Assembly: GCA_965221505.1 (NCBI GenBank)
Contig: CBDCSI010000002.1
Coordinates: 225,575-289,574 of the forward strand
Origin: Rhodobacterales bacterium
Lineage (GTDB): Bacteria > Pseudomonadota > Alphaproteobacteria > Rhodobacterales > CAZPXZ01
Length of the DNA stretch: 64,000 nt
Direction: 5' to 3'
The notes below the pieces were generated by a model. That model was given only the letters and a program-made list of their open reading frames with translations. It had not been told where the DNA came from and ran no database searches. The translations under genes and the position numbers were made by a program. Positions 10,714 to 46,775 of this stretch are shown here, one piece after another. Position 1 is the stretch's first letter. Every line of letters begins with the position of its first letter.

Positions 10714-10777
10714 TCCGAACGGCGCGTTGCGTATCGTCGCGCCGCGCGCGACCGGAGCCGAAGGGAGAACGGGCAGG

Positions 10778-18573: not shown

Positions 18574-19822
18574 TGAACGATCCTTCTCCCCAAAATGCGG
18601 TCGGAGGCCAGGTTCGGACTTCCGCATGCGCGCAGCTCTCGGAAACCCTGGAGACGAGCCGTGGACTCGCCGCTGCACCCACGCGAGGCTGCATCTGCGA
18701 CTGCGATTCAGGCCTCCTTCCGACGATCGTCCCATGATATCGGCCATGTGCGCGTCTTGCGAACGCGGGCTTGCGAAACGTTTTCGATCCGTACGCCGCC
18801 GCAGCCGTCACGGTTGTAGAGGTTGAATTTTGCCCAATAATCGAAACCGACCGCGACGGTTCCACTTAACCGGGGCAAGCTGCCCGCCACGGAACGTCGT
18901 CCGAACGGAAGCCGCGCGGAGACGCCCGGACCCGCAACCCGCACGAACCGTGCCGCCGGGGAGACCATGCAAGCGGCGGAACGCACGCGACGGACGGGTG
19001 GCATGAGTCGCTCCTCGCGACTCGGGGGGCTCAAGTCACGGAGACGACCGCCCGGGCCTCCGGACGCCGCAGACCGGCGAGTTGAGTCAGGGCTCGTGCG
19101 GCCGCCGACCGACTGCCTCCGTCGCACCGTTCCACGCTCGGTCGCCTCGGCCGCCCGCCGCCACGGCTCGCAACCTCGGGTGCTTTGCGGCGACCGGAGG
19201 AACGTTCCGCTTGAAGGCCGAAAACTTGTCCGGTTGAAGGGTTCTACGAAGGCAGCCGGGCGCGCGATGCGCAGCTCGCCGACGCCGGCACGGCTCGAAT
19301 CCTCGACGTGCCTTCGCGCGGCGGCGCCGGGCATCGCGGAGGCTCGCGAACGGCCAGGACATTTGCCGCAGGCCGGAAGACGGTCCTTCGCTGCCGCGCT
19401 CGCCCGCACGTTCGGCCCCGGGGAGCGTCCGCCCCAGCGACCGACGCAACGGCCGGCCCGCGCCGCGAATCGCCACCCTGTCCGTCCCGCCGCCTACCGC
19501 GAATCGGCGCGGGGATTCGGCGAATCGATTCGCGGTTCGGTTCGCTGCAGGGCGGCCCGCGTCCCGGTCGGCGGCCGCGCAACCCCCTCTAATGTGTTAA
19601 AAATCGGACTCGAAATTTTTGCGGCGCTTCGCCGGCGCAGGCGAGTCCCGGCGTCACAGGAACGGCGTTTCCGCAAATAGTTACGACAAGGTCTTCCGGG
19701 TCTTTGCGAGAAAGAATCGTCAACGTATCCGCGACCTGACTTGCCAACTCACGGCAATACGGCAAGGCTCTTCCCGTTCGCGCCGGTTCCGGCGAAACCA
19801 CATCCGAGTCCAGCGGGGCGAC

Positions 19823-20857
19823 ATGAACCCACGAGCGAAAGGCGAATCGGGGAAGAAGCGGAAGCCGGGGCGCAAGCGCCGCGGAAACCGCCGCTGCCCG
19901 TACTTGCATCAGCCGCACGACGCCATTCTCCAGGCCGTCATGGAGGACCTCGAATGCGCCGACGAACTGATCCGGGCGCACCTTCCGCCGGCGATCGCCG
20001 AGATGCTGGACTCGGCGCTGCCGGAAGCGGTAGACGCGCAGCACGTCAGCGCGACTCTTCGTCGCAGCCGCAGCGACCGGATCTTCCGGTTCCGCCTCAA
20101 GAGCGGTTGCAAGCGCAAGTTCCTCTACGTCATCGCCGAGTTCCAGTCCACGGTCGATCCCGGACTCGTCTGGCGGACGCAATCCTACGCAACGCAGCTC
20201 GCGAAGCGCGAGGCGGCGGACGACACGCCGTCCGGGCGACGCAAACGCGCGTGCGTAATTACCCTGATATTCTATCATGGTCGAAAAAAATGGAATGCGG
20301 CGGTGTCTCTTGCGGAGGACGTGGAGGCGGACGAAGAGTTGGTTCCCTACCTCCTGGATTACCGGTACAGCCTCCGGGACCTCGGTCGCATGGCGGTGGA
20401 GAAACTGGCGACGGGAGCGAAGCTGCAGGCCGTCCTTCGGGCCGCGGTCCATGCGTGCCGGAAGTCGGTGACCGGCGGCGAGATCGAAGCGTTGCTGCGA
20501 CTCGTTCCGGAGGAGAGCGATTTTGCGGACCGGTTGCTGCTGTATATCATGGGCGCGATGCCGGCGGATTCGTCGGTGATCAAGCGGGCCGTGAAGAACG
20601 CTTGGCCGAAAACGGGAGTCGAGAAGATGGGACCGATGGGAAGAGAACTCGTGGACGCCGGGCGCAAGGAGGGCCGCAGGGAAGGGCGCGTGAACATGCT
20701 CGAGGGCCTTCTCGCACGCCGGTTCGGCAGTGTGCCGATTCAACTCCGCAAGGTGATTCGCAAGGGTTCGGCCGCCGAGCACGATCGGTTGTTGGACGCG
20801 ATCGTCGAGGGACAGGCGCTCGACGACCTGTGCGCGTCTCGCGCTACGGGGAGATAG
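19823..20857 (+). CDS. Rpn (YhgA-like, PD-(D/E)XK) recombination-promoting nuclease family protein
   Basis: PHDAILQAVMEDLECADELIRAHLP, RSDRIFRF, LYVIAEFQSTVD and IFYHGRKKW motifs, with the C-terminal tail KEGRREGRVNMLEGLLARRFGSVP. Start set at ATG 19823 (MNPRAKG..). An AT-rich patch at 19588-19625 lies upstream. Confidence 0.8.
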   Translation: MNPRAKGESGKKRKPGRKRRGNRRCPYLHQPHDAILQAVMEDLECADELIRAHLPPAIAEMLDSALPEAVDAQHVSATLRRSRSDRIFRFRLKSGCKRKFLYVIAEFQSTVDPGLVWRTQSYATQLAKREAADDTPSGRRKRACVITLIFYHGRKKWNAAVSLAEDVEADEELVPYLLDYRYSLRDLGRMAVEKLATGAKLQAVLRAAVHACRKSVTGGEIEALLRLVPEESDFADRLLLYIMGAMPADSSVIKRAVKNAWPKTGVEKMGPMGRELVDAGRKEGRREGRVNMLEGLLARRFGSVPIQLRKVIRKGSAAEHDRLLDAIVEGQALDDLCASRATGR

Positions 20858-20948: not shown

Positions 20949-21203
20949 ATGGGGCCGATGGGAAGAGAACTCATGGACGCCGGGCGCAAGGAAGGCCGCA
21001 AGGAAGGCCGCAGGAAAGGCCGCAGGGAAGAGCGCGTGAATGTGCTCGAGGGCCTTCTCGCACGCCGGTTCGGCCGTGTGCCGATTCAACTCCGCACGGC
21101 GATTCGCAAGGGTTCGGCCGCCGAGCACTATCAGTTGTTGGACGCGATCGTCGACGGACATACGCTCGACGACCTATGCGAGTCTCACGCCGTCGGGAAA
21201 TAG
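20949..21203 (+). CDS. stand-alone Rpn C-terminal-domain ORF (84 aa) created by the duplication
   Basis: MGPMGRELMDAGRKEGRKEGRRKGRREERVNVLEGLLARRFGRVPIQLRTAIRKGSAAEHYQLLDAIVDGHTLDDLCESHAVGK parallels the last 76 aa of the Rpn protein. It keeps its own ATG, with GGGAG about 10 nt upstream. The frame is intact despite point differences. Confidence 0.5.
   Translation: MGPMGRELMDAGRKEGRKEGRRKGRREERVNVLEGLLARRFGRVPIQLRTAIRKGSAAEHYQLLDAIVDGHTLDDLCESHAVGK
20988..21035 (+). repeat. 12-nt coding microsatellite (aaggaaggccgc x about 4) encoding (K/R)EGR repeats
   Basis: The units are aaggaaggccgc, aaggaaggccgc, aggaaaggccgc and agggaagagcgc. The parental copy (about 20667-20690) has only two units. 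Confidence 0.85.
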
Positions 21204-21850
21204 GACGGCCTATGGTGGACGCCCAGAGCCCGAAGAACGCCATTTCGCTCGGACCGTCGCACCGGGACGTGCTTTCGCGAGCACGAGCAACGGCCCGGAG
21301 CCGGCGGGACGGAATCCCCGGGAACGGATCTTACGGATTCGGGCCACAGGGTCCGCTGAGCTGAGTTGCCGGAGCGCCTTCCGACACCGCGATGCCGCGA
21401 CATGACGGGTCCGATCGGCGAAGCGAACCACAGAGGTTCGGCCTCCGAGCGCAATCGCCAGGCGGACGCGATCACGGAGGGCAACGCACTCGAGACGACT
21501 GCCGGGCAAGCCGGAGAAGCCACGTCTTGACTCATCGACCTCACGGCGCAGCGCAGCGTTCCCGTTCGACAGGCGATCGGCGCAACGGGAACGGTGGAAG
21601 CGCCCGTCGCTCGCTGCGCCGAAGCCATTCTGCAACAGGCTCCGTTCCGGACAATTGCCGCATAGCCGCCCGACCCGTCCGGTCTGCAAGCGATCGGCTC
21701 GTCGGCCGGTCGCCGCAGGCGCCGGGATCGCTCCGTCAGCCTGCCGAATCGGGAAAGCCCGAGCTCCGATTTGCCCGAACGCGTATGATTTCCGCAAAGG
21801 TTGCCACACGCCGCCGGTAGCCGAGAACCGGAGCCAACGCAGGAATTGAA

Positions 21851-23278
21851 GTGACGATATTGCGACTGCTCTCGGAAACACGCTTTCGGCTGCGCCTTGC
21901 GGAAGGCAGCGCCCTTCATAGGTCGCAAGACGGCCAGGGCTATTCCGTCGACACGGAGATTGGGACGCTCTCCGTCGGCGGATTCGCTCCCGCCTTCGAT
22001 ACTGCCGTTCGTCTGTTGGGGCGCGGAGCCCCTCTGGCCGACTTGCGAGATACGGTCCTCAGCGAGTCCACCGTGGAGTGCGCCGCCCAATGCCTCCTTT
22101 GGATTCAAGCCCTCGCCCGAACCGGCTGCATCCGCTACGCGCTGGTCGACGACGGCCGGGAACTGGCGGCTGTCGACCCGCAGAAACCCCGGTTCTCTCC
22201 CGAGTTGTCGCCCGAAACGCCATCTGCGGATGCGGTTCTCGATCCGCTTGCCTATCTCAGGCAGGAGCCGCAGGGCGGCTGGCGCCTCGAATCGCCGCTG
22301 GCCGACGCCAGCGTTCGGCTGCCCGAACTGGACGCGCTTCGCCATCCGCTCGTTCGCCGGCTGCTCCACGCGCTCGGCATGTTGAGAGCGGAGGAGCGGA
22401 CCTGCGTTTCCGCCGCTCGCCAGGACGCCCTCGCCCAATGGGAATTCCACGACCTCCTGTCGCACATGCGCCAGAGCCCCGGGGTTTTTGCGGCGCCCTT
22501 CGGCAAGCACGCTCCGTTCGTCGGCAAGATCGATCCGCTCCCGGCCGTCCCCGATTTCGGGTCGGCGAATCGGATTCCGCTGCCGCGAGCCGAGGCGGCA
22601 CCGGAACGAGGGTCTGTCTCTTCCGCCCTGGCGCGACGCAGCTCCGTCCGCACGCACGACGAGTCCCGCCCAATCTCCGTCAGGCAGCTGGGCCTGCTCC
22701 TCGATACGGCGGCCCGCATCCGGGACAGGACCCGCGTGCGGATCCGAAGCCTCGACGGATCGGAGTCCTTCGCCGAGTTTACCCGCCGCCCTTACCCGAG
22801 CGGCGGCGCGTCGTACGAACTGGAGATCTATCCGGTCGTGGGAGCCTGCACCGGCATCGAGGCCGGCATGTATCACTACGACGCGAAGTCCCACGCGCTC
22901 GCCTCTGTCTGCCCCGCCGGCGCAAGCACGCGATCGTTCCTGGAAGACGCCGCCCGCGCCATGAGAGCCGCGAAGCCGCCGCAGCTGTTACTGGTGATCT
23001 CCGCGCGGTTCGGCCGGGTCATGTGGTTCTATCGATCCATCGCCTACGGCCTGATCCTGCGAAATACAGGCGCGCTCTACCAGAGCCTCTACCTCGCGGC
23101 GGAGGAAGCGGGACTCGCGTCCTGCGCCATCGGCGCGACCCGTATCGGACTCTTCGCCGACGCCACCGGCCTCGATCCGCTCGTGGAGGGACCGGTAGGA
23201 GCCTTCAGCCTCGGCAGCCGACCAGGACCGGCAATGGGTTCCCGAGCCACCTCGCCCCGGCGGGAGAATGCGGCCTGA
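21851..23278 (+). CDS. SagB/ThcOx-family FMN-dependent dehydrogenase (azoline oxidase) with long N-terminal extension
   Basis: The C-terminal roughly 210 aa carry the SagB-type nitroreductase pattern (RRSSVRTH, RRPYPSGGASYELEIY, MYHYD, RNTGALYQSLYLAAEEAGLASCAIGA). GTG start at 21851. Confidence 0.85.
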   Translation: MTILRLLSETRFRLRLAEGSALHRSQDGQGYSVDTEIGTLSVGGFAPAFDTAVRLLGRGAPLADLRDTVLSESTVECAAQCLLWIQALARTGCIRYALVDDGRELAAVDPQKPRFSPELSPETPSADAVLDPLAYLRQEPQGGWRLESPLADASVRLPELDALRHPLVRRLLHALGMLRAEERTCVSAARQDALAQWEFHDLLSHMRQSPGVFAAPFGKHAPFVGKIDPLPAVPDFGSANRIPLPRAEAAPERGSVSSALARRSSVRTHDESRPISVRQLGLLLDTAARIRDRTRVRIRSLDGSESFAEFTRRPYPSGGASYELEIYPVVGACTGIEAGMYHYDAKSHALASVCPAGASTRSFLEDAARAMRAAKPPQLLLVISARFGRVMWFYRSIAYGLILRNTGALYQSLYLAAEEAGLASCAIGATRIGLFADATGLDPLVEGPVGAFSLGSRPGPAMGSRATSPRRENAA

Positions 23279-23453: not shown

Positions 23454-26378
23454 TCAGACCAGCTGACGTTCCGCAAGCGCCCGGAAGCTACCGTCCGCAG
23501 CCATGAGTTCGTCGAAGGTGCCCGATTCCGACACCCGCCCTCCTTCCAGTACATAGATTCGATTGGCTTCCCGGACGGTGGACAGCCTGTGGGCGATCGC
23601 GATGCGCGTCGAGGTCAGCCGGCGGATTCCGTCCATCGTCTCGCGCTGGCTCGACGCGTCCAGCCAGCTGGTCGCCTCGTCCAGGAACACGATTCGCGGA
23701 TTGCGTACCAGGGAAGCGGCGATTCGGATTCGCTGCCCCTGACCCCCGGAGAGAGTCGTCGCGGACTCGCTGACAGGGGTATACATGCCCATCGGCATCG
23801 CTCGAATGTCGCGCTCGACCCCCGCCGCGCGCGCCGCCCGCCAAGCGTCCGCTTCGGTCAGGTCGCCCATGACGCCGATGATGTTGTCGAGCACCGTGCC
23901 CGATACGAGCGCCCCGTCCTGCACCACGACCCCGACCTGGCGGCGAACCGACTGCGCTCGGAGACTATCCAGACTTTTTCCGTCGTAGTAGATGCCGCCG
24001 GAGACGGGCCGCTCGAGGCCGAGCGCCAGCCGGATCAGAGTGGACTTTCCCGCGCCCGACTCCCCCACGACGGCGATGAATTCGCCGGGTGCGGCATGGA
24101 GAGAGACGTCGTGCAGGACCACCGGACCGTCGCTGCCGTAGCGAAATCGCACGCAGTCGAATCGGATGTCGCCCCCAAGGGTCGTCGCCCGGGCGCTCCG
24201 CCGCACGGGTTCCAGTTCCGCCTGCAGAATGGGACGTGCCTGTTCGCAAACCGGAATGATCGCGGCGATCGCCTCGAACGAAAACCCGAGCATGGCGACG
24301 GTCATGTAGAACGTCATCGATGCGGCATAGACCGCCACGAAGTCGGACACCACGGCAGGACCCGCCTCCAGCCGCAGAACTCCGGCGAACAGCAGAGCGC
24401 CGCCAAACGCCGGCAGCGCCGCCGTAAGCGCCGCCATATGCTCGTTGACGCGCGCGACCTGGATCTGCGCAACCTGTTGCCGTCGGAACGTACGGGCCCA
24501 GAACGCGAACGCCGACGGTCCTGCGCCCGTCGCGCGGAGCTTTCCGATCCCGCCGAGTATCTGCATCAACGTGCTGGCGAGTTCGCGCGTGGCCTCGACG
24601 TACCGACGCTGCGGCCCCACCTGAAGGATTCCGAAGACGACAGCGGCCAGAACTGCCGCGACGCCGACGGTCGCCGTCAACAGCCCCAGGAGAGGGTTGA
24701 GCAACATCAGGGCCACCAGCGCGGGCAAGAGAAACAGCACCGACAGGAACGCGATCACGGCAGGTCCGGCGATCAGGTCGCGCAGGTGATGGAAGGCCAG
24801 CGCACGCATTGCCACCTCGCCTGCCGTACGTTGACGGAAGAAACCGGACGTCAACCGAAGGGTCCGGTCCCACAGCAACGAACTCAAACGGGTCGTCAGC
24901 CTTCCCTCGATTCGCATGATCGCGGTACCGCGCAGGACCTGCAGAAGCGCTGCGACGACGCCGAGCGCGGCCAGCGCCATTCCGAACAGCGCCAGCGTGC
25001 TTCCCGTCGGACCCGCCGGAATCAGGCGCTCGAGAAGAATCGCGAGAGCGAGCGCAGGTGCGAACGCCAGGAGCCCGGCGCCGACGCTCGTCGCGGCCAG
25101 CCGGACGAGATCGAATGCGACTCCTCCCCGCGCAGCCCTCGCCATGTCGGCGAATTCCGCCGGCCGTTCCTTCGGGATCGTGCGGTACAGAAACCACGCG
25201 TCCTCGTGCAGAGCGTCGACCGTGTCCGGTCCGGCCCGCGCGACCCTACCGCTTGCCGGATCGTGAACCCGGTACGCCCCGAAACTGTCGGGAATCAACG
25301 CGACGGGCCGGTCGCCCTCGCGCAGGAAGGCGAGCATTGCGCCGCTGTCGGAGCGCCACCAGTCCGGTTCGGTACGCAGCCGTATACGCCGGGCCCTAAC
25401 GTTGGCATGAGCGAGGAAATCCGCCAGTCCCAGGTCCTCTCCCGGCCCGGTTTCGGGAGCCTGCAAGTCGATCCCCTCGTACTCGCTCACCGTTCGGAGG
25501 GCGACCCGCAGCCCGTCCTCCCGGGTATCGGGAGGAGCTGATTCGTCTCCCAGAAGAGAATGCAGTTCCCCGCGCGCCGCCACTTCCGCACGTCGCAGAA
25601 GAGCGCTCCGGGCGAATTGCAGATTGGCCTGATCGACGACCCGCAGCTGACGGTTCAAACGCATCACGCGCGCCGCCAGCCGGTGGAATTCCGGCAGGTG
25701 CCGGCAGAGCAGCGGGCCCGTCTCCAGCTCCCGGGCCGCGAGGCAGGCGACGTCCGAAGGACCGGATATCTGCATCCATGTGCCCTGCGTCAACGGAATC
25801 AGGGAACGCTCGGACGAATCGGCGTCCTCCAGATCCAGAAACACGGCCGCGAGCCCGTGACACGGAACCCACACCACGCCCTGACGCGCGGAAACCACCC
25901 CCTCGACCGCCGATTCCTCGCCGGCGGACAGCTGCCGCGCAATCCTCGGCCTCGTTTCGATGTCGCGCACCAGCGACTGGCCGAGGGCGTCCACCCACGC
26001 GTCGACCCCCTCGGCGACGGCCGCGGCAAGCGGAGCGTCTTCTCGCGCCTCCTCGACAAGCGCGGCGACGGAGAGCCGACGAAGCCTCGTGTCGGGCAGG
26101 CCCTTGCACAACAGCTGCAAGTCCCCGTCCTTCGTTCCGGTATCGATCCCGAAGGCGAGCTGGCCGCGCTCGAGACGAAGCACGTTCTGCAACGGCGCCC
26201 GAACCGCACCGTCTTCCGTTTCGACCGCGAACACTTCCAGCGAACCCCGTTCGACGTACCAGAGCGACTTCGGGTCTTCGAGCCGCAGCGGCCGGTTTCC
26301 GGCCGACGGCACGGCGTCGCTGGCGGCGGTCGCGAAGCGCGCCAGCGCCTCGGCCGGGGAGAGCCGTTCAATGCGCAT
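23454..26378 (-). CDS. NHLP-type bacteriocin export ABC transporter, permease/ATPase subunit with N-terminal beta-barrel (cNMP-binding-like) domain
   Basis: Walker A GESGAGKST, signature LSGGQGQRIRIAASL and Walker B IVFLDEATSWLD follow a six-helix membrane domain. About 260 extra N-terminal residues are present (..WYVERGSLEVFAVETEDGAVRAPLQNVLRLERGQLAFGI..). Overlaps the upstream ABC gene by 11 nt. Confidence 0.85.
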   Translation of the reverse strand: MRIERLSPAEALARFATAASDAVPSAGNRPLRLEDPKSLWYVERGSLEVFAVETEDGAVRAPLQNVLRLERGQLAFGIDTGTKDGDLQLLCKGLPDTRLRRLSVAALVEEAREDAPLAAAVAEGVDAWVDALGQSLVRDIETRPRIARQLSAGEESAVEGVVSARQGVVWVPCHGLAAVFLDLEDADSSERSLIPLTQGTWMQISGPSDVACLAARELETGPLLCRHLPEFHRLAARVMRLNRQLRVVDQANLQFARSALLRRAEVAARGELHSLLGDESAPPDTREDGLRVALRTVSEYEGIDLQAPETGPGEDLGLADFLAHANVRARRIRLRTEPDWWRSDSGAMLAFLREGDRPVALIPDSFGAYRVHDPASGRVARAGPDTVDALHEDAWFLYRTIPKERPAEFADMARAARGGVAFDLVRLAATSVGAGLLAFAPALALAILLERLIPAGPTGSTLALFGMALAALGVVAALLQVLRGTAIMRIEGRLTTRLSSLLWDRTLRLTSGFFRQRTAGEVAMRALAFHHLRDLIAGPAVIAFLSVLFLLPALVALMLLNPLLGLLTATVGVAAVLAAVVFGILQVGPQRRYVEATRELASTLMQILGGIGKLRATGAGPSAFAFWARTFRRQQVAQIQVARVNEHMAALTAALPAFGGALLFAGVLRLEAGPAVVSDFVAVYAASMTFYMTVAMLGFSFEAIAAIIPVCEQARPILQAELEPVRRSARATTLGGDIRFDCVRFRYGSDGPVVLHDVSLHAAPGEFIAVVGESGAGKSTLIRLALGLERPVSGGIYYDGKSLDSLRAQSVRRQVGVVVQDGALVSGTVLDNIIGVMGDLTEADAWRAARAAGVERDIRAMPMGMYTPVSESATTLSGGQGQRIRIAASLVRNPRIVFLDEATSWLDASSQRETMDGIRRLTSTRIAIAHRLSTVREANRIYVLEGGRVSESGTFDELMAADGSFRALAERQLV

Positions 26379-28620
26379 GGAGAAACTCGCGATAGAGACT
26401 GCCCTCCGCCGCGATCAACGACTCGTGGGTGCCTTCCTGCACCACCCGGCCCCGGTCGAGAACGAGAATGCGGTCGCTGTCCCGGATCGTGCTCAGCCGA
26501 TGGGCGACGATGAGGCTGGAACAGCCGCGGTGACGCAGCGCTTCGTCGATGCGGAATTCGTTCACCGTATCGAGACTGCTGGTCGCCTCGTCGAGGATCA
26601 GGAGCGACGGATTGACGACCAGCGCACGGGCGATCTCGAGTCGGAGACGCTGGCCGCCGCTGAAGTTACGGCCCTCCTCCTCGATCGGGGAGTCGTAGCC
26701 GAGCGGGCGAGCGATGATCTCGTCGTGAATCCGGGCGTCCCGGGCCGCGTCGACCATGGCGTCCTCGGGAACCGCCGCGTTCCACATGGTCAGGTTCTCC
26801 CGAACGCTGGCGGCGAACAGCACCGTGACCTGGCTCACCACCGAGACGGACGAAGCCAGGATTTCCGGCGGAATCTCCTCGCGCGGGAGCCCGTCGAACA
26901 AGATCTCCCCCGACCACGGCCGGTAGACGCCGGCAGCCAGCATGGCCAGGGTGGACTTGCCGGAGCCGCTGGGTCCGACGACCGATACCCGCTGACCGAC
27001 CTCGACCACGAGGTTGAAGTCCTCGATCAGCGGCGGCCTGTGCTTCGTGTAGCCGAAGGTGACGTTGCGCATCTCGAGCCGACCCGCCAGGCGAAGCCGA
27101 CCGGCGACTCTCGCCAGGCGGCCCGACCGCTCGTCGCCTCCGCGATTCGGGACGTCGTCGTCCGGCGGCGCGTCGAACACGTCGTTCAGGCGCGAGAGGT
27201 CGGCCTCGAGCGTCTGAAACAGGTCGGAGAACAGCGCCAGGCGTCCCACCGGCTGCAGGAAGCCGGTAGCGAGCAAATGGAGCCCGATCAGCGTGCCGAC
27301 CGACAACTCGCCGGACGCGAGCCGCTCCCCGCCGATGCCGAAGACCACCGCGGCGCCGAGGAACGTGAACAGGATCGGCAGCGCGGCGACGACATGTCCG
27401 AGTTCGACGAAGTCCTGCCGTGCGCCGAGTTCGCGCGCTTGGTAGCCGCTCAACTTCGCGAAGAAGTCGTCCTCCGACGCGGTGGCCCGCATGCTCTCCG
27501 TATGACGGAGGCCCGCCATGCCGAAGCCGATCAGCTTGCCCTGCTCGCGGCCCAGCTGGTGGTTCAAATCGGTCCGCCGCCGGGTCAGGAGCCGGGTAAG
27601 CAGGACGGACCCGATCCCCATGGAACCGACCAGCGACGCCAGCAGGGAATCGATCGCGAACATGGCGCCGAGAAAGGCGAGGCTCATCACGAGTTCGATC
27701 ATTACCGCGACGAGCTGGCTCGTTCCGAGCTGCGCGACTGTGCCGATGAGGCGGGCGCGCTCCGCGAGCTCGCCGGCGTGGCGCTGCACGAAGAAGCGCA
27801 TCGGCAGGCGAAGCAGGTGAACCAGGTACCGGTCCGACTGTTCCACCGTAAGTCGCACGGCGAGTTTTCGAAGCAGTCGCCGCTGGAACCAGGTCAGGAG
27901 ATAGACCGCCGCGCCGGACGCCGCCATCCCGCCGACCAGAACCGGCGCCCAGCCCGGCTGCCGGCCGCCAAGAACGTAATCGACGAACGCGGACAGGATC
28001 AACGGCATGGCGAGGCCGAGCGCGGCGAGAAGAAGTCCGGCGAGAACGGCGGCGAACAGGGTGGGCTTGAAACGGCGGAGCCACGGCCAGAGAAGCGGCA
28101 GGACGCCGGGACGCCTCCCGCCGGGCCGAAACCGCTCGTCGGCCTCGAAGGTCAGCGCGACGCCGGTGAAGGCGCCCGAGAAAGTCTCTGCGTCGACCGT
28201 CCGATGCCCCTGAGCGGGGTCGTTGATCCGAAAGCCGTCGCCGGCAAAGCCTTCGAGCACCACGAAGTGGTTGAATTCCCAGAACAGCACCGCGGGCAGC
28301 GGCGTGAACTTCAACTCGGGAATCCTTCGCCGCCAGCCGGTCGCCTTCACGCCGTACTCCCGGGCCGCGCGGACGATATCGGCCGCACTGCATCCGTCGC
28401 GCCCGACCGCGCACGCGTCCCGGAGCTCCTCCAGAGGCACCCAACGCCCGAAATGAGCCAGAACGATGCCCAGGCAGGCTGCGCCGCAGTCCGCCGTCTC
28501 GTGCTGAAGATAGACGGGCGTTCGGACGCGCTGCCGCATCTCCCGCCACCGCGCGAGCAAGCGTCCCGGAAGCCCCGCCTTCCACGCGCGCGTCGCAGAC
28601 CGAGGAAGACGGAGTCGCAC
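26368..28620 (-). CDS. NHLP-type bacteriocin export ABC transporter with N-terminal C39 peptidase domain
   Basis: C39 motifs QHETADCGAACLGIVL (Cys), FNHFVVLEG (His) and RINDP (Asp). These are followed by the membrane domain, Walker A GPSGSGKST, signature FSGGQRLRLEIARAL and Walker B LLILDEATSSLD. Confidence 0.9.
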   Translation of the reverse strand: MRLRLPRSATRAWKAGLPGRLLARWREMRQRVRTPVYLQHETADCGAACLGIVLAHFGRWVPLEELRDACAVGRDGCSAADIVRAAREYGVKATGWRRRIPELKFTPLPAVLFWEFNHFVVLEGFAGDGFRINDPAQGHRTVDAETFSGAFTGVALTFEADERFRPGGRRPGVLPLLWPWLRRFKPTLFAAVLAGLLLAALGLAMPLILSAFVDYVLGGRQPGWAPVLVGGMAASGAAVYLLTWFQRRLLRKLAVRLTVEQSDRYLVHLLRLPMRFFVQRHAGELAERARLIGTVAQLGTSQLVAVMIELVMSLAFLGAMFAIDSLLASLVGSMGIGSVLLTRLLTRRRTDLNHQLGREQGKLIGFGMAGLRHTESMRATASEDDFFAKLSGYQARELGARQDFVELGHVVAALPILFTFLGAAVVFGIGGERLASGELSVGTLIGLHLLATGFLQPVGRLALFSDLFQTLEADLSRLNDVFDAPPDDDVPNRGGDERSGRLARVAGRLRLAGRLEMRNVTFGYTKHRPPLIEDFNLVVEVGQRVSVVGPSGSGKSTLAMLAAGVYRPWSGEILFDGLPREEIPPEILASSVSVVSQVTVLFAASVRENLTMWNAAVPEDAMVDAARDARIHDEIIARPLGYDSPIEEEGRNFSGGQRLRLEIARALVVNPSLLILDEATSSLDTVNEFRIDEALRHRGCSSLIVAHRLSTIRDSDRILVLDRGRVVQEGTHESLIAAEGSLYREFLHAH

Positions 28621-28623
28621 GAG

Positions 28624-29502
28624 TCAGCGCACCGCCGAAGCGAAAACGAGGCGAATCGGGGATCGCTTCTCCAGGACGAAGGTCACTTCGCAAGGCGTGC
28701 CGTCCGCGAGTTCGACGCCGTCGGCCTTCAGGGACAGGCGAACGAGGTACGGCGGGCCGTCCGGCCCGTCTTCGTCGCCCACTGCCCCCCGCCGCGACGC
28801 CGACGGCGAAGAAACGGACTCTACGCGGGCCGGATACACGGAGACCGGCGCCCCGCGCTCCGGCGCGAACACGGCGACCCGGGCTCCTTGCCCTTCCCTC
28901 ACGACCGCTGCGGCGCCCCGATCGATCAGGGCCACCGCTTCCGGAACCGAACTCCTGCCGGATCGGATCTCGGCCACTTCCGTTCCGGGCTCGACGGTTT
29001 GCCCTGCGGTCCTGCGCACCGCAGCAACTTCGCCCGACCGGGGACTCTCGAGCACGCTACCGGCCTCGACCAGCGCCTCCAGCCGGTCGACTTCGGACCT
29101 CGCCGCCCCGATCGCCTCCGGCTCCGCGCCCCGCTCCTCCGCGATCTTCAGTTGCCGGATTGCCGCCCGAAGCCGCAGACCCAACGACGTCGGGTCCAGC
29201 GCGGCGACCGGCTGTCCCGCCGCCACCGCGTCTCCCGGCCGGACATGCGTCCGCGCTACCACGCCCGACACCGCCGAGACCACCGGATAGCGTTCGCCGG
29301 GAAGAACCAACACGCCGGGCCGGGACAGGGAACGCTCGACGGGGACCAGCGAAACGAACGCGATCACGGCCACGATTCCGACCGCGAACAGGCCGAGGAA
29401 GAGCCATTCGTGCGGCGCCGTGACCCGCATCGGGTAATCGATGGGTTCCGGTTGAGAGCGTTGCGCCAACGCTTCGTCCCGGAACAGTCGGCTCCTCAAC
29501 AT
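28624..29502 (-). CDS. HlyD-family secretion adaptor of the NHLP export system
   Basis: ATG 29502 gives MLRSRLFRDEALAQRSQPEPIDYPMRVTAPHEWLFLGLFAVGIV, which is the HlyD N-terminus plus a single TM helix. Coiled-coil and beta-barrel regions follow. The stop lies 3 nt before the C39-ABC start. Confidence 0.85.
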   Translation of the reverse strand: MLRSRLFRDEALAQRSQPEPIDYPMRVTAPHEWLFLGLFAVGIVAVIAFVSLVPVERSLSRPGVLVLPGERYPVVSAVSGVVARTHVRPGDAVAAGQPVAALDPTSLGLRLRAAIRQLKIAEERGAEPEAIGAARSEVDRLEALVEAGSVLESPRSGEVAAVRRTAGQTVEPGTEVAEIRSGRSSVPEAVALIDRGAAAVVREGQGARVAVFAPERGAPVSVYPARVESVSSPSASRRGAVGDEDGPDGPPYLVRLSLKADGVELADGTPCEVTFVLEKRSPIRLVFASAVR

Positions 29503-29930
29503 GGCGTCACCCCTCCCGGGCCGTATCGCTGCGGCGCCGCCGGACCCCAACCGCGCCGGCCGCCCGAACCGCGATCGGGCCCGTTTTTCGAGTCTCCGCG
29601 GGCGCGAGTCGACTCTACCGCCGGAAACGCGACCCCTGCCGGCCGCGAACATGTTGACACCGGACGCCGCGCGAAGTCCAATTCACCGCTCCTCCGACTC
29701 GCCCGACACTTGGGAAGAAAAACGATCGCCGCTCGTCACCGCAGATTCGCTCCGTATGCCGGCCCGAGCCGCCGCCGTTCGCCGACGAGACGATCGAGCC
29801 GAGCGTCGGCGCCGACGACCGAGTCCGCTCGCCTCCGGCGCCTGCCGCCGGGACGCGCAATTCGGCGACGCCAAACCCGCAGTCTCGCGTCCGACGCGAG
29901 CGTCCCGCGTCCGACGGTCGTCCGCTCCCG

Positions 29931-31031
29931 TTGACTCGAGCGCCCGCCCTGCCGCCCCGTCCTTCCGCCCCGGACCGGCGGCAGTCCGACGACCCGGCCG
30001 GTCAGGGTGTCCGCGCCGGGACGCGATCCGCGGCGGAAACGCTTCGCCCGATTCTCGACCTGATCGAGCGTCGCGTACCGGACGCGCTGATCGACCGGCA
30101 GGGCTGGAGCGCAATTGCGGAACGGACCGCCGACCTTCCGAGGCTTGCGGCGGAGAGTTCCGTCGGCTTCGAGACGCGATTGCAGGATCCGCGCCCGGCC
30201 GCGGATTTCTTCGTATGGATTCGCCCTTCCGGCCGGTTCGGCGAGTATCTGCTGCATGCGGACGATGGCGGCGGGCGGGCGCCGATTGGCCCGGAGGCGA
30301 TCCGCCGACTGCGCCGCGCCGGATCGACCCTCGCCCGGCGGGTGCCCTGGCTCATCCTGGAATACGACGTCGTCGACGCCCCGCCCGGCTCCGCTCTTGC
30401 GCCGGGCGTGTTTCTGACGGACATCCCCCCGATCCCGCAAGACGAATGGAACCCGATCGCGGACATACTCGACCTCGCTACGCGCCGGACGGAGTGCCGG
30501 GAGGAGAGGCGCATGCTCGCGGCGCTCGCCGGCGCGGTACCGCCCGGCGGGCGCATCGCCCATCTCGGCGCCATGCCCGATCGGCGCCCGCGCACGCTCC
30601 GCGCCCTGGTCAAGACCGATCCGCAGCAGACTCCGGGATTTCTTCGACAAATCGGCTGGCCCGGGGCAATTCGGGAGTTCGAACGTACGGTCGAGCCGAT
30701 GCGGCGGCTGATCGCCGGATGGTCCGTCGCCTGCGACGTCACGTCCGGCGCCGTCGCGCCGCAACTCGGAATCGAGTTGTTTCTCCACGGCTTGTGGCCC
30801 GCCCTGACCGCGGCCGACTGGCACCCCCTCCTCGAACGACTCGAAGCGGAGAGCCTGTGCCGCCCGGAGAAGGCGGCGGCCCTTCGCGCGGAGATTCCTC
30901 CCCGTACCGTGATCGACGAACGCGGCGTTCGCGTCATGCGAACCGGGATCAACCATATCAAGCTGACGCTCCGCGCCGACGGCACGATCGGCTGCAAGGC
31001 GTATCTCGGCGTGGCGTTCCTGACCGCCTGA
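29931..31031 (+). CDS. hypothetical protein, no recognisable family (five helix/beta-hairpin repeats)
   Basis: The composition is balanced and non-Arg-biased, unlike the antisense ORF 30002-30997. Five hairpin-like segments are present: VGFETRLQDPRPAADFFVWIRP, WLILEYDVVDAPPGSALAPGVFLTD, RIAHLGAMPDRRPRTLRALVKT, WSVACDVTSGAVAPQLGIELFL and INHIKLTLRADGTIGCKAYLGVAFL. The start is uncertain (TTG 29931 is the first in-frame start). Confidence 0.65.
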   Translation: MTRAPALPPRPSAPDRRQSDDPAGQGVRAGTRSAAETLRPILDLIERRVPDALIDRQGWSAIAERTADLPRLAAESSVGFETRLQDPRPAADFFVWIRPSGRFGEYLLHADDGGGRAPIGPEAIRRLRRAGSTLARRVPWLILEYDVVDAPPGSALAPGVFLTDIPPIPQDEWNPIADILDLATRRTECREERRMLAALAGAVPPGGRIAHLGAMPDRRPRTLRALVKTDPQQTPGFLRQIGWPGAIREFERTVEPMRRLIAGWSVACDVTSGAVAPQLGIELFLHGLWPALTAADWHPLLERLEAESLCRPEKAAALRAEIPPRTVIDERGVRVMRTGINHIKLTLRADGTIGCKAYLGVAFLTA

Positions 31032-31243
31032 ACGACGATATCGACACCCGAACGGGGCGCAGCGAGTGCGCCCCGGCCTGCGTTCCGCCGTCTTCAGCCG
31101 CCTCTCGACCCGGCGCGAACCGGCTAAAGCGACGAGCGCGGGGGCAGGTCGAACCGGCGACGCCAGGACGCGCGCGGCAGGCAGGCAGGCACTCCCTCTC
31201 GTCCGAAGGCGGTCCGCGTTCCGGCGCCGGCTCTCTGCGGACA

Positions 31244-33538
31244 TCAGACGAAGGGATCCAGGGGATTGAGATCGCTCTCCTTCGGCATCGCGTCCAGCCA
31301 ACCCTGGCGGACCGGCACCTCGTAGAGGCGCCCGGGCGCGAGCCGCCGCCAGAAGTGCCGGAGTCCCGGCACGATCACGCGCACGACCGGCAGACCGACG
31401 TCGTCGCGCGTCTGGTCCAGCGTCAGGAACTCCATGCCCTTCCGCTCGACCAGGGCGCGGCACAATTCGACGTCCTCGCGATGGTCCGAGGTCTCCGGGA
31501 CCTCGTAATCGCTTCGGGCGCGCCGTTCGGCGGCGGCGTCGGGCAAGAGGTAAGGATGGTCATCCGCGCGCACCGTGCGGCACCACGCCTTCGCCTCCGC
31601 AGACAGCTCCAGGCAGCGTCGCGACAGAACGTCCCGGTCCAGTCTGGTCAGGCCCTGGTTCAACTCGGACACGGCCCGCATGGCCGCAATCAGCGGATCG
31701 AAATGTGCGCCTGCGCCCAGAACGATCCGGTCGTCGCCTTCGCCGACGGTCCGCGAAACGGCGACGAACGACGGGATGCCGAGATCCGTGGTGACGTCCA
31801 GCACCCAGTATTCCCGCCCGAAAGATTCGTAACTGCGCCGTACCCGGTCGAAAAAACCCTCGCCGAAACTCGCGAGATCCAGGCTCGGCCGCCGGAGGCG
31901 GTTGAACCACCAGCAGGCGAATCCGTCCCGCTCCACCAATTCGAAGAAGCCCTGCAGGATCGCTTCGGCCAGGGTGTTTCCGGACGCGCAGCCGTTGGAA
32001 TTGGCGACGTACCGGTTCCGGCTGCCGGGGGTCGGGCGCGAGTAATAGAGCGTCTCCGTCGGCAGGTAGCGGTGCTTGCCGGCGGTAAACGACCACACCG
32101 GCGTCCAGTCGGTTTCCGCCTCCGGATCGAACGGCTCCGGCACGAACGCCTTGCCCGCGCCGTCCGCCCGACCGGCCAGCTGCGCCTCGCTGAAGAGTTC
32201 CACGCAGTTCGGGGGGATTGCGTCCGCCTCCGGAAAGTCGACGAACCGGGCGCGCCGAACGATCTCGCCGCCCAGGCGGATTCCCGAATACCGTTCGAAC
32301 CCTTCGCACATGCCGCTCGCACGGGCCTGGGCGAGGGTACTTCCCTTGCCGGTGCTCACCGGCAAGCTGGCGGGGTCGAACAACCGATCGAAGCGCTGCA
32401 TCGTCGCAGGCAGGCTCTGAACGGTGCCGAAGACGTGCAGCCAGGGATCGTCCGGAAATTCGATCGGCTCCAGCGGCGACAGAATCCCCGTGATCGGATC
32501 GACCAGGTGCCGGTGCCGTCGAATCGTCTCCTCGGGCGGAACGGAACGCGTGCCGCCGCTGTTCTGCACCGCCTTCGGCGACGGACCCGGAGACACCGGA
32601 ACCGGCGCCCGGTCCGGCCGGCGGGACTCCGGATCGCCGCAGGCCTCGCACATTCCGCTCGGAACCACGCAGTGCCGGTCCACCCGGCCCGAGCTGGCGT
32701 TCAAGGACATCGCATGTTCGTTGAGCGGCGATTCGTCGTCGAACACGACCCACCTCGCGATCTCGAGCGCGGCCGCGCCGATCGCCGCGTCGCGTAGCGG
32801 ACTCGGGCGAACGGGCGTCGCAACCGGCCCGCCGGCTTCGCGCCGCAGGAGCGTCTCGACGACCAGTCGTTCGGACATGCGGCGCTCCAGGCAGCGCCAG
32901 CAAGGTCCGCGTCCGGGACGAAACACCGGGCCGAACAGCGGAAGGCCGCCGTCGGGGCTCAGGAGCATCCAGGCCTGCGCCGCCTCGGCCTGGCGACGGC
33001 AGGTCTCGGCATGCGCGGCATCGCGGACGTCGTCGGTGAACCGGACCGAGAGATCCCCGCCGGAGTCGACGACCGTCACTCCGAGTCTCGACAGTGCCGC
33101 CCGAAACCCCTCGAAACGGTCCTCGACTTCCACGGTCGTCTCGGCGAGCCGCCGCTCCGCCCAGCGCGGCGACGCGCCCAGCCGGCACCAGAACGTCGCA
33201 AGGTTCGGCGCGAGCCCATGCTCCCCGGAGACGAGCTGGCCGGACGTCGCCATGCGCACCAGCGCCGTCTGGGTCTCCAGCGGGGCGTGTCGGCCCTCCA
33301 GGGATTCGACGATTTCGTGGCGCGTCCGCGTGCCGTCGAGAAGCGGCAGCAGGTCCGGAAAGCACGCGCCCGTGAGCACGACCGCCCCGCCCGCATCGTT
33401 GACGAGAACGGCACGCTCCTCCGCCGGATACGCGCGCCAGGAGAGGTGCGGCGCGATCGTCGGCCGTTCGACCAGTCCGCGGTCCGCCGGGGTGGTGCGG
33501 ACGAGGGAACGAATGGCGAATGGAGTACGATCGCTCAC
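31244..33538 (-). CDS. fused TOMM cyclodehydratase: E1/ThiF-like leader-docking domain + YcaO domain
   Basis: The N-terminal half has Cys pairs (GPCWRCLERR; HCVVPSGMCEACGD) as in E1-like/SagC-type proteins. The C-terminal half has the YcaO core STGKGSTLAQARASGMCEGFERYSG, plus NSNGCASGNTLAEA and a Pro-rich C-terminus NPLDPFV. GTG start 33538 is preceded by GAGGA. Confidence 0.9.
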   Translation of the reverse strand: MSDRTPFAIRSLVRTTPADRGLVERPTIAPHLSWRAYPAEERAVLVNDAGGAVVLTGACFPDLLPLLDGTRTRHEIVESLEGRHAPLETQTALVRMATSGQLVSGEHGLAPNLATFWCRLGASPRWAERRLAETTVEVEDRFEGFRAALSRLGVTVVDSGGDLSVRFTDDVRDAAHAETCRRQAEAAQAWMLLSPDGGLPLFGPVFRPGRGPCWRCLERRMSERLVVETLLRREAGGPVATPVRPSPLRDAAIGAAALEIARWVVFDDESPLNEHAMSLNASSGRVDRHCVVPSGMCEACGDPESRRPDRAPVPVSPGPSPKAVQNSGGTRSVPPEETIRRHRHLVDPITGILSPLEPIEFPDDPWLHVFGTVQSLPATMQRFDRLFDPASLPVSTGKGSTLAQARASGMCEGFERYSGIRLGGEIVRRARFVDFPEADAIPPNCVELFSEAQLAGRADGAGKAFVPEPFDPEAETDWTPVWSFTAGKHRYLPTETLYYSRPTPGSRNRYVANSNGCASGNTLAEAILQGFFELVERDGFACWWFNRLRRPSLDLASFGEGFFDRVRRSYESFGREYWVLDVTTDLGIPSFVAVSRTVGEGDDRIVLGAGAHFDPLIAAMRAVSELNQGLTRLDRDVLSRRCLELSAEAKAWCRTVRADDHPYLLPDAAAERRARSDYEVPETSDHREDVELCRALVERKGMEFLTLDQTRDDVGLPVVRVIVPGLRHFWRRLAPGRLYEVPVRQGWLDAMPKESDLNPLDPFV

Positions 33539-33630
33539 GCAGTCCTCGAAGCAGACGGAAGCATATCGCTCGACCGAAGGGGAGAATTCCCTGCCCGTAC
33601 CTCTGTACCGAGTCCTCGAAGGGCGTCAAC

Positions 33631-33654
33631 CGAACCGCAAGCGGTTGCGGTTCG
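33631..33654. promoter_or_regulatory. perfect 10-bp-stem hairpin / palindrome upstream of the YcaO gene
   Basis: cgaaccgcaa-gcgg-ttgcggttcg lies about 95 nt upstream of the YcaO start. It is flanked by two copies of agtcctcgaag (33541-33551 and 33611-33621). Confidence 0.4.
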
Positions 33655-34497
33655 CGACGGCCCGGTCGCGAGTTGCGGGAGGCGCAGAGTCGGGGCCGTG
33701 ACCGCAGCGCGATTGTTCGCGTTCGCGCCCGCGCCGGAGCGGCGGTCGCTTCCGGCACGATCCGTCGAGTGGGTGCGGCTTCGAAAACCGTCCCTCGCGA
33801 CGGTTCCGGGCCAGTCCCGCAGACGGCGTCGCAGCGGCGGGCGCCTCCGCGGCGCCGGCACCGGGCGAATTCCGATCCTTCGCCCCCCGCGCGAGCAGGG
33901 ACCTGTCGGCTGCGAGCCCGCCCCGCGAACCGATCGCAGCGAGTGCCCCGCCCGGTCTACCCCGCCGTCACGACACGCCCGCGGGAACGTCCGGGCGCGA
34001 TCTCGCCCCGGGTCCCGTCGGTGAGCCGCGTTCGGCGCGCGCGCGAGCCGGCGACCGACCCTCGTTCCCCCGACCCCGGGCCGGTGCGCAACGGGCTCGT
34101 TCCGCCGGACGGAAACGACAGCGGGGCGCAATTGACGAAGCGATCCGCGTACAACACAATCCCGCACCGAGGCTGACCTGCGCCTCCACCGGGCGCAAGG
34201 CCGCAGCTCGGTCCCCTCGATCCGGCCTGAAGACCGCGGCACCCGGAACCGCCCAACCCGCGACTCGCGCCGGAAGACGACCTGTGCTCGGCCCGCGCGG
34301 TCGCGTCGCGCCTCTGCAGAGCCGGAGAACTCAATGGAAGCCGAATTCCTGTCCGGTCCGGTGCCTCGGCGGAGCGAAACGCCGCCGGACGATCGGACAG
34401 CGCCGCCTTCGCGGTCTGCATCCTCTCCCCTCCCGCGCTCCGCCGCCCGGAGCCCGGCCGCTTCTGCCGATGGGCGACAGGCCGGGACGACCGAGCC

Positions 34498-45687: not shown

Positions 45688-45975
45688 TTACCCCCCAACG
45701 GTATCGAGATATTCCCTCCTCTTTTCGGAGGCCCAAGGCTGGCCGCCGTGAACCTGATGGAGCGACTGGTCCGAGACCTTCGAATCCTGCGGCAGGACGA
45801 AATTCGCCACGTTGGGCGTGTCCTCGTGGACCTTGATCTCCAGATCGTCCGGCAACTTGTACCCGAGCTCGCTTTCGAGCGCCGTCTTGGGCGATTCGAT
45901 CAAACTGGCCCGAAACGCTTCGTCTTCGGATGCCCGGCGCACCAGGTGCGCCCTCACTTCGTCTGCGGTCTTCAT
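45688..45975 (-). CDS. NHLP family RiPP precursor paralogue (orphan), predicted core QPWASEKRREYLDTVGG
   Basis: 95 aa from ATG 45975, with GGGGAGA upstream: MKTADEVRAHLVRRASEDEAFRASLIESPKTALESELGYKLPDDLEIKVHEDTPNVANFVLPQDSKVSDQSLHQVHGG/QPWASEKRREYLDTVGG. The leader and GG site align with the peptide at 17506-17778. Confidence 0.8.
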   Translation of the reverse strand: MKTADEVRAHLVRRASEDEAFRASLIESPKTALESELGYKLPDDLEIKVHEDTPNVANFVLPQDSKVSDQSLHQVHGGQPWASEKRREYLDTVGG

Positions 45976-46775
45976 GCCGATCGTCTCCCCTTGATCCAAG
46001 AAGCAATACTCCAGTGCGACGATACTACAACGGCAGCGCGAGAGGAATCGCCGGGCGCGACCGGGAGGGCCGCTACCAAGTTCCGTCGGTCGCACCCGGC
46101 ATCGACGCTGTCATGAGCGGCCGGCAAGATCGGAAGCACGGTCGCGAACGGGACCGGACCCCGACAAATCTTCCCGACTCGAGATCGGGGGGGCGGCGCG
46201 GCACGCCTGCGAGAGCTTCACCCGCCGTACTCGGGCTCTCCGGACATCGCCGAAGTCGGCCCCGGCAAGCGTCTCCCCCCAGTAGGACGACGCCTGACGA
46301 TCTGAAGAATATGGCAAGAGTTCGAATTCGCCCTTCTTCCCCGCGCATGACGCACGAGCTTGCGTCGTAGCGCAAGGGAAAATACGGGCAGACGCTCGCC
46401 TCTCGACTGCCTTCGCTTTCGACGGAGGGGAACCGATTCCGGACGCCCGTCGATGCGCTCCATGCGTCGAAGAAGTGCCGCCGACCAGGATCATGCAACC
46501 TCCGGGCCTTCGACCCATGCAGCGTATGCGGGCCAGGGGCTCGAGCGAATTTGCGTCGCGGTAGGTTTGCGCGCTGTCGCGAACGCGCCCCGGCGATGCG
46601 TCTCGTCCGGGGCCGGAGCGCGAGTCGCGACGTAGGGCCGGGAGAACCCCGACCGGGATTCGGCGCGAACCGGTTCGAAGGGCAACGAACCCGACGTTCG
46701 CGCCGGCGTACCGAATCTGCGCAGACCGGACCGGACCAGGCACGCTCGCCCGGAGGCCGACCTCGCGCCCGTCGC

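Follow-up and report, generated by a model that had tools for sequence, protein, structure and literature searches.

What kind of enzyme is encoded at positions 29931..31031 (+) of a 64,000-nucleotide stretch of DNA from a Rhodobacterales bacterium (contig CBDCSI010000002.1 of assembly GCA_965221505.1; this whole stretch is referred to as the window), and on which peptide would it act? A preliminary description made from the sequence alone recognized no family motif in the 366-aa product of this open reading frame (ORF), and this was borne out by searches of Pfam, NCBIfam, and PDB sequences (phmmer), which returned chance-level matches only. Based on a frame plot, homologs, an AlphaFold2 (AF2) model, Foldseek, and a family hidden Markov model (HMM), we assigned the product to the MppC-like peptide prenyltransferases (PTs) with an ABBA (α-β-β-α) barrel, and within them to a short-form, NHLP-associated clade. 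We propose that this protein (referred to as the window PT) is a soluble, stand-alone tailoring enzyme of an NHLP-type thiazole peptide cluster at 17.5-33.5 kb, and it is likely that it serves this NHLP/YcaO cluster as a peptide prenyltransferase of the MppC family.

The fold was the starting point of the earlier proposal, which had read five strand-turn-strand segments (residues 78-99, 140-164, 208-229, 264-285, and 340-364) as an ABBA barrel. In the AF2 model, which had a 130-sequence alignment as input (mean predicted local distance difference test score, pLDDT, 91.8; predicted template modeling score, pTM, 0.89), DSSP delineates five consecutive units, each made up of two or three helices and then a β-hairpin, and the five segments coincide with these hairpins (77-83/91-97, 140-145/159-163, 208-214/223-229, 263-270/275-284, and 332-347/353-365). 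A short additional strand is present at 325-329, and residues 1 to ~35 are the only part predicted to be disordered. When the model was searched against PDB with Foldseek, ranks 1-48 were all ABBA/PT-barrel aromatic prenyltransferases, including AmbP1 (with the lowest E-value, 2.8e-6), AmbP3, S. coelicolor 5-DMATS, FunA, TleC, CymD, FamD1, NphB/Orf2, PagF, CloQ, EpzP, NotF, CdpNPT, and FgaPT2; unrelated folds start at rank 49, with a probability ≤ 0.04. The ABBA matches are distant (template modeling score, TM, 0.41-0.56; identity 7-16%). An ABBA/PT-barrel prenyltransferase fold is thus strongly supported by the predicted structure, and the window PT appears to share the fold of the solved ABBA structures, yet the sequence family of none of them.

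Its resemblance to the DMATS-type and Orf2/NphB-type enzymes is at the fold level only. The window PT has no match at E ≤ 1 to PF11991 (DMATS-type) or PF11468 (Orf2/NphB-type), ten members of its family have none to these two models at E ≤ 0.01, and a search of PDB sequences with the 130-sequence profile (hmmsearch) found no prenyltransferase. The AAA_lid, NtrC, and NifA matches in the protein searches and in this hmmsearch are at chance level, all via a shared “WPGN/G” stretch. The best structural matches, the bacterial small-molecule enzymes AmbP1/AmbP3, CymD, S. coelicolor 5-DMATS, NphB, and CloQ (TM 0.44-0.56), have the same 10-stranded antiparallel barrel ringed by helices, but they share ~10% identity with the window PT and act on free indoles or phenols instead of leader-bearing peptides.

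A word-indexed search found only four distant homologs (360-372 aa, 25-30% identity), giving the impression of a rare family. This was corrected by an exhaustive search of 1.84 billion representatives with a profile built from these four, which yielded 4,178 clusters with E ≤ 1e-3, of which 1,527 have E ≤ 1e-30. The family is large but uncurated: in ten members, fusion proteins included, the shared domain has no Pfam or NCBIfam match, and a family of this size is still without a model in either database and labeled “hypothetical protein” by NCBI, as for members in Acidobacteriota and Gemmatimonadota metagenome-assembled genomes (MAGs). In the 130-sequence alignment, D92, P158, and Y358 (numbered as in the window PT) are invariant and E81, E144, D146, R218, R224, W243, K314, H342, K344, and K356 are near-invariant; P158 aside, each of these residues is conserved in 146-153 of 155 aligned sequences. 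In three pairs among them (E144/D146, H342/K344, and K356/Y358), the two residues are two positions apart (i, i+2) on a strand, which agrees with one inward-facing side, and the near-invariant residues would line the barrel.

Outside the cyanobactin family, two similar ABBA peptide prenyltransferases are known, MppC and NctPC, both acting on Trp, and it is for MppC that we show homology here. MppC is an α-β-β-α prenyltransferase from the class II lanthipeptide mpp cluster of Moorena producens (Wakeel, McShan & Agarwal, JACS 2025; PMC12715784). It geranylates the indole C5 of Trp82 in the MppM-cyclized, Nif11-led MppE, requires the leader in cis, was assayed with Mg2+, and refuses Trp82Tyr and Trp82His substrates (PMC12715784). 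By mutagenesis, its Trp336/Phe340 segment is needed for activity; mutation of Phe340, which was modeled as docking into the structured nucleus of the leader, lowers activity (PMC12715784). NctPC (Hubrich et al., Chem 2024), as described in a 2026 review (PMC13290415), combines an ABBA PT and an MstE-like cyclase in one fusion protein and geranylgeranylates Trp in a ribosomal peptide.

As a stand-in for MppC we used the 397-aa product of the gene directly downstream of MppE (10650-11843) in an mpp-like locus of a Moorena MAG (L005; homologous loci are numbered with L, family members with P and four digits). This locus was found via the published MppE sequence (Table S1), to which its own MppE is 93% identical, and in the MppC ortholog Phe340 is conserved and residue 336 is Leu, not Trp. 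The HMM of 130 relatives of the window PT matches this ortholog with E = 2e-102 over HMM positions 11-351, and BLASTP with the window PT itself gives E = 4e-18 and 24% identity over residues 48-361 (~320 residues). All 16 of the 16 near-invariant family positions are kept in both proteins. These sequence comparisons place the window PT in the MppC-like family, distantly but without ambiguity, and not in that of PatF/PagF.

Within this family, the segment between K314 and H342 is bimodal in length in the 155 sequences aligned to the HMM, with 28-30 residues in a “short” and 43-46 residues in a “long” form, and the 17-residue insertion of the long form directly precedes MppC Phe340. The MppC ortholog, P0004, and P0006 are of the long form, and their precursor or partner is LanM or Nif11; P0005 (a partial sequence) is also long. 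Short and NHLP-linked are the window PT, P0003, P0011, P0023, P0027, P0035, P0048, and P0105, while P0002 and P0126 are also short and not among the members with an assigned precursor. The segment around MppC Trp336/Phe340, a feature of MppC-like membership, is thus absent from the window PT and from all of its NHLP-linked relatives. Of 148 assignable members, 93 are short and 55 long, the nearest neighbor has the same form in 144 of the 148, and mean identity with the segment excluded is 31% within forms vs. 24% between them. By these measures of sequence the split marks clades, and the rule linking clade to leader rests on 11 assigned contexts.

Short-form members in three loci are adjoined by mutually homologous proteins of 324-383 aa (L007 9138-10112, L011 9032-10033, and L012 6853-8004; 38-47% identity). 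These have a near-threshold match to the C-terminal domain of squalene-hopene cyclase (best E = 9e-6, 25.4 bits vs. a cut-off of 26.1) and no PDB sequence match. They may work on a prenylated peptide as stand-alone class II terpene cyclases, as in the NctPC fusion. L007 additionally has a full squalene-hopene cyclase 5 kb away. In the window, tblastn found no homolog of the cyclase-like protein.

The genes around the window PT supply the context. Upstream of it, on the opposite strand, are the genes of an NHLP exporter: an HlyD-type membrane-fusion protein for NHLP bacteriocin export (28624..29652, −; Pfam HlyD_3, TIGR03794 NHLM_micro_HlyD), a Peptidase-C39 ABC exporter (26368..28620, −; Pfam Peptidase_C39, ABC_membrane, and ABC_tran), and an ABC transporter as the second exporter subunit (23454..26378, −; Pfam ABC_membrane and ABC_tran). 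On the other side is a fused cyclodehydratase (31244..33538, −) with an N-terminal leader-binding cyclo_dehyd_2 domain and a SagD/YcaO domain (Pfam YcaO, E = 1.8e-91; TIGR03882 and TIGR03604). A ThcOx/nitroreductase-type azoline dehydrogenase (21851..23278, +; Pfam Nitroreductase and ThcOx) and an NHLP-leader precursor, P1 (17506..17823, −; TIGR03793 leader_NHLP, E = 3.8e-20), complete the cluster, and between these two lies a YhgA-like (Transposase_31) transposase (19619-20857, +; Pfam). A second, distant NHLP precursor, P2, is encoded at 45688..45978 (−; TIGR03793, E = 1e-19; tblastn; ORF listing), ~12 kb past the YcaO gene with housekeeping genes between.

This set of genes (NHLP precursor, ThcOx-type dehydrogenase, two ABC exporters, HlyD, PT, and fused YcaO) is conserved as a unit elsewhere. 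In L003, the locus of P0011, which is the closest homolog of the window PT (47% identity), orthologs of all six cluster proteins are present (YcaO 53%, dehydrogenase 55%, C39-ABC 73%, ABC 59%, HlyD 46%, and PT 47%), and an NHLP precursor gene is directly upstream of the PT gene on the same strand. Since the precursor is so placed in L003 and a transposase splits P1 from the cluster in the window, the layout here may reflect a rearrangement. L001, which holds P0003, is a third YcaO-linked example. More broadly, the association with peptides made on the ribosome and modified after translation (RiPPs) anticipated in the preliminary description extends across the family: in 10 of 11 homolog contexts a precursor of the NHLP, Nif11, or LanM type adjoins the PT gene, with NHLP in L001, L003, L006, L007, L008/L009, L010, and L012, Nif11 in L004 and L005, and LanM plus precursor in L002.

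The precursors themselves give a view of the possible acceptors. P1, whose true start is likely Met16 at 17778, has a leader that contains an L(X)4L motif and ends in ...RLDAQDLEHASGG, followed by the core VDSGDCYCYG; the Cys-containing CYCYG noticed earlier is the real end of this core. P1 and the L003 precursor share 57% identity, their cores have 10 residues each, and Cys8 is conserved, but the residue following it is Trp9 in L003 and Tyr9 in P1 (TCWW vs. YCYG). The cores adjoining other family members are LCCCW (L001), NCGGEGTCWW (L003), SCLCWSC… (L002), …AAWTTLFGWCNS (L004), …EEESWAEQ… (L006), SNDQWTDYSNW (L008/L009), …NCEWGHDHH… (L010), RTWSCTCDDCNPD and AWSCACKDPNCDPNDDD (two precursors in L012), and …NCDGKSYYMYDC (L007); the published MppE core is ACWRWSG. 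With MppE left out, 10 of 12 cores contain Trp, which makes up 6.1% of core residues (P ≈ 2e-6 for 10 of 12 at a Trp background of 1.3%), and this enrichment fits a family predicted to prenylate aromatic residues, chiefly Trp. The two Trp-free cores, those of P1 and L007, are both Tyr-rich near the C-terminus.

Which residue of P1 would then be prenylated? The preliminary description argued that PagF prenylates Tyr and hence that Tyr of CYCYG is prenylated; since the window PT is not of the PagF family, this argument is not transferable, and MppC and NctPC both act on Trp. Prenylation of Tyr nevertheless stays plausible for another reason, because the core of the orthologous L003 cluster has Trp at the corresponding place, which makes Tyr9 (or Tyr7) the most likely acceptor in P1. 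The best-supported reading from the sequences is that Tyr9, or Tyr7, would be prenylated next to a thiazole, and we hold it tentatively, as a possibility that falls somewhat short of probable. The rejection of Tyr by MppC is a caution here, though MppC is a distant relative.

By analogy with the characterized systems, we can outline how the cluster may work. The fused YcaO cyclodehydratase and the ThcOx-type dehydrogenase would convert Cys6 and Cys8 of the P1 core to thiazoles, the dehydrogenase oxidizing thiazoline to thiazole; azole formation is placed before prenylation because MppC prefers a cyclized substrate. The window PT, which would recognize the NHLP leader despite the missing insertion, may then bind an isoprenoid diphosphate in the barrel lumen via R218, R224, H342, K344, K356, and Y358, with E81, D92, E144, and D146 probably holding Mg2+ or serving as base. 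As in other ABBA PTs, the diphosphate would ionize and the allylic cation pass to an aromatic side chain of the core while this still carries its leader, after which the C39-ABC/ABC/HlyD exporter would cut the leader after GG and secrete the product. Conserved residues and gene context are the support for the predicted Mg2+-dependent prenyl transfer to a leader-attached peptide; prenyl transfer by the window PT, the roles of its residues, the order of the steps, leader dependence, donor chain length, and the acceptor residue are what we infer. In the related enzymes the donor is C10 for MppC (PMC12715784) and, as described, C20 for NctPC (PMC13290415).

Compared with MppC, the window PT has the same sequence family, ABBA barrel, and near-invariant residues; both have nearby a precursor with a long structured leader (Nif11 or NHLP), an L(X)4L motif, and a GG site, and in both systems another enzyme first modifies Cys of a short core. 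They differ in the partner enzyme (LanM forming lanthionine for MppC; YcaO cyclodehydratase and dehydrogenase forming azoles here), in the leader (Nif11 vs. NHLP), in clade (short, without the 17-residue insertion, with identity at the level given above), and in acceptor, MppC being Trp-specific while the cognate core of the window PT has Tyr and no Trp. NctPC, compared by its description only, is likewise an ABBA peptide PT of low similarity to the cyanobactin PTs (PMC13290415); fusion proteins occur also in the family of the window PT, and cyclase-like neighbors beside short-form members, whereas the window PT itself stands alone. PalQ, a ComQ-like Trp prenyltransferase, also acts on an NHLP precursor, prenylating an aromatic residue near the C-terminus, and its activity is enhanced by the leader (PMC10853753), but it has an all-alpha isoprenoid-synthase fold and is unrelated in structure and sequence.

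Several points weigh against an MppC-type function in this cluster. The window PT is only 24% identical to MppC, and it is without the 17-residue insertion beside the leader-docking Phe340, with no equivalent Phe evident; because of this absence its engagement of the substrate may differ from that of MppC. The characterized relatives MppC and NctPC prenylate Trp, MppC refuses Trp82Tyr, and the P1 core has no Trp. P1 and the PT gene are ~12 kb apart, and a transposase gene lies in this interval. The PT gene starts with TTG and has neither an obvious Shine-Dalgarno sequence nor a convincing promoter.

The alternative that survives best keeps the enzyme and its chemistry and changes the substrate, the physiological acceptor being Trp3 of the Cys-free P2, alone or besides P1. 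The P2 core, QPWASEKRREYLDTVGG, lacks Cys, contains a single Trp, at position 3, and has a GG of its own at the end; its NHLP leader has a GG cleavage site, and P2 is 46% identical to P1. Trp is the acceptor in both characterized relatives and Tyr is rejected by MppC, Trp is the rule in the cores adjoining family members, and several of these have it near the core N-terminus like P2 (GG|RTWSC and GGG|AWSC in L012). It is possible that P2 is an alternative substrate of the window PT, or an orphan one that the same exporter and PT act on. However, P2 is ~15 kb from the PT gene, with GlnE, ADH, S58 peptidase, Pyr_redox, and YidC between, in L003 the PT gene is transcribed together with that of the Cys-containing counterpart of P1, and Trp is likewise missing from the Tyr-rich core (KSYYMYDC) that goes with the family member in L007. 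We therefore regard P2 as an unlikely, though serious, candidate, and prefer P1 as the substrate.

A second alternative is that the window PT has the ABBA fold without transferring a prenyl group, acting as a leader/core-binding scaffold for the cyclodehydratase or in some other barrel chemistry. The activity of short-form members is predicted from sequence and model, their clade is without the insertion beside the leader-docking residue of MppC, and the similarity to solved PTs is distant (TM ~0.5). But all the near-invariant polar residues of the active MppC are conserved across both clades, and the Trp enrichment of the cores holds for the NHLP-linked members too. In addition, short-form members pair with the conserved 324-383-aa cyclase-like neighbor in three loci (at near-threshold similarity), a pairing that would be meaningful only with a prenyl group already in place. 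Altogether we consider a non-prenylating barrel quite improbable, and the window PT remains best described as a prenyltransferase.

Cyanobactins also combine thiazoles with prenylation, and the preliminary description compared the window PT with PatF/PagF, which would make it a leader-independent Tyr O-prenyltransferase. The cyanobactin PTs (PatF/PagF/LynF/TruF) do share the ABBA fold with it, and azoles and a prenylated aromatic residue on a ribosomal peptide are common to both systems. They act after leader removal and macrocyclization by the PatA/PatG proteases, whereas the window cluster relies on an NHLP leader together with a C39-ABC exporter. Neither a PatA/PatG-type protease nor a PatE-type precursor was found among the Pfam-scanned genes (~11.6-53 kb of the window). 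Nor is there a detectable sequence relationship: at E ≤ 1, NCBIfam and Pfam, including the cyanobactin PT, DMATS, and Orf2 models, gave just two chance-level, unrelated matches, and PagF (5tu6) is at rank 23 in Foldseek (E = 1.4e-4, TM 0.42-0.50, 8% identity), in contrast to the clear homology to MppC. The MppC network of 258 UniProt sequences, in which 76 are colocalized with LanM, 87 with Nif11, and 9 with NHLP precursors, has no link to PagF according to its authors (PMC12715784). The membership in the PatF/PagF family suggested earlier was thus abandoned, and a cyanobactin-type enzyme is very improbable here.

The gene call itself had to be secured, because the window is ~69% G+C and long ORFs are therefore present in all six frames around the PT gene. 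The G+C content at the three codon positions of the + frame of 29931-31031 is 0.74/0.56/0.81, which fits the PT ORF; at 30.0-31.0 kb it is lowest at coordinates ≡ 1 (mod 3) and highest at ≡ 2 (mod 3), and the flanking genes have the mirror pattern, as for genes on the − strand. As noted in the preliminary description, the PT gene (+) is on the strand opposite to its neighbors HlyD and YcaO (both −). The ORFs antisense to it (331 aa and 575 aa) are Arg/Ser-rich, without a family match. The 575-aa ORF was rejected as a real gene, being Arg-rich and without a family match where the + strand has strong homology evidence. A chance origin of the PT ORF in 69% G+C DNA, the opposite strand carrying the true gene, could draw on the long ORFs in all frames, on the same low-GC second codon position in the 575-aa antisense ORF, and on a TTG start without a clear ribosome-binding site, but is already refuted, to the point of having next to no probability, by thousands of homologs of matching length, the confident AF2 model, an ortholog kept in a syntenic cluster, and the lack of family matches in the antisense ORFs. 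Because homologs exist, both the four from the word-indexed search and those of the 4,178 clusters from the exhaustive profile search, the coding status is settled, and 29931-31031 is a real gene.

The signals around the gene are less clear. TTG at 29931 is the sole canonical in-frame start from the upstream stop (29655-29657) to residue 53. The promoter-like TTGACA (29654-29659) and TCCAAT (29677-29682) that had been proposed upstream are indeed present, but a consensus scan found no site there because the -10 hexamer has no A at position 2, and the pair (TTGACA-N17-TCCAAT) is at best weak evidence for a promoter of the PT gene. Downstream, RNAfold of 31032-31243 predicted a 9-bp GC-rich stem-loop (CGGGGCGCA-GCGAG-TGCGCCCCG) at 31053..31075 (+), which begins 22 nt past the PT stop, in the 212 bp that separate the PT gene from the convergent YcaO gene. 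It may serve as a terminator for both; the terminator scan did not call it since it has no T-run.

As an enzyme kind, the window PT is not categorically new, because such enzymes have been in the literature since 2024-2025. Not described so far are a short-form NHLP clade without the segment around the docking Phe340 of MppC, the pairing of an MppC-like PT with a YcaO/dehydrogenase azole pathway, and a cognate core with Tyr in place of the usual Trp. A further-reaching reading is that the short-form NHLP clade is a mechanistically distinct branch of RiPP PTs in which the NHLP leader is engaged with no Phe340 segment, that the acceptor has here switched from Trp to Tyr beside a thiazole, and that the product is a secreted thiazole/prenyl-tyrosine peptide; as a whole we find this conceivable but somewhat unlikely. 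If true, it would be the first Tyr-prenylating MppC-like enzyme and the first prenylated NHLP-type azole peptide. The window in any case puts a member of the MppC family into an azole-forming (YcaO) NHLP pathway, and the unannotated short-form clade is large (93 of the 148 members analyzed, in a family of > 4,000 representative clusters). Lipidation of ribosomal peptides strongly affects their membrane activity and is wanted for peptide engineering; if the proposed function is confirmed, more RiPP classes and acceptor residues would be open to leader-guided, and therefore site-selective, prenylation.

A few further observations concern the window cluster and its relatives. An ORF at 21185-22894 (−, 569 aa) was rejected as a cluster gene, since it matches no family and overlaps with the + strand gene of the ThcOx type, which does. 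In the ~960-bp gap upstream of YcaO (33539-34497), none of the ORFs has a coding-like codon-position GC, and tblastn gave no NHLP match. In L001, a flavin-dependent Trp halogenase (11968-13242) is encoded beside the precursor with the core LCCCW, whose single Trp could be both halogenated and prenylated, and in L010 a WelO5-type Fe/2OG halogenase-like gene adjoins the PT gene. Fusions in the PT family include an N-terminal sulfotransferase (P0073), a C-terminal 2OG-Fe(II) oxygenase (P0092 and P0098), and a C-terminal SAM methyltransferase (P0132), and P0029, P0033, and P0112 are tandem double-barrel proteins of ~680-720 aa. Finally, a Foldseek search of viral structures (BFVD) with the PT model matched two uncharacterized cyanophage proteins of ~285-290 aa with the same barrel fold, A0A0E3HAV3 from Synechococcus phage ACG-2014e and A0A1D7SG87 from Cyanophage S-RIM44 (E = 5e-5 and 4e-4 respectively, TM ~0.5), which may be phage-encoded ABBA prenyltransferase-like proteins.

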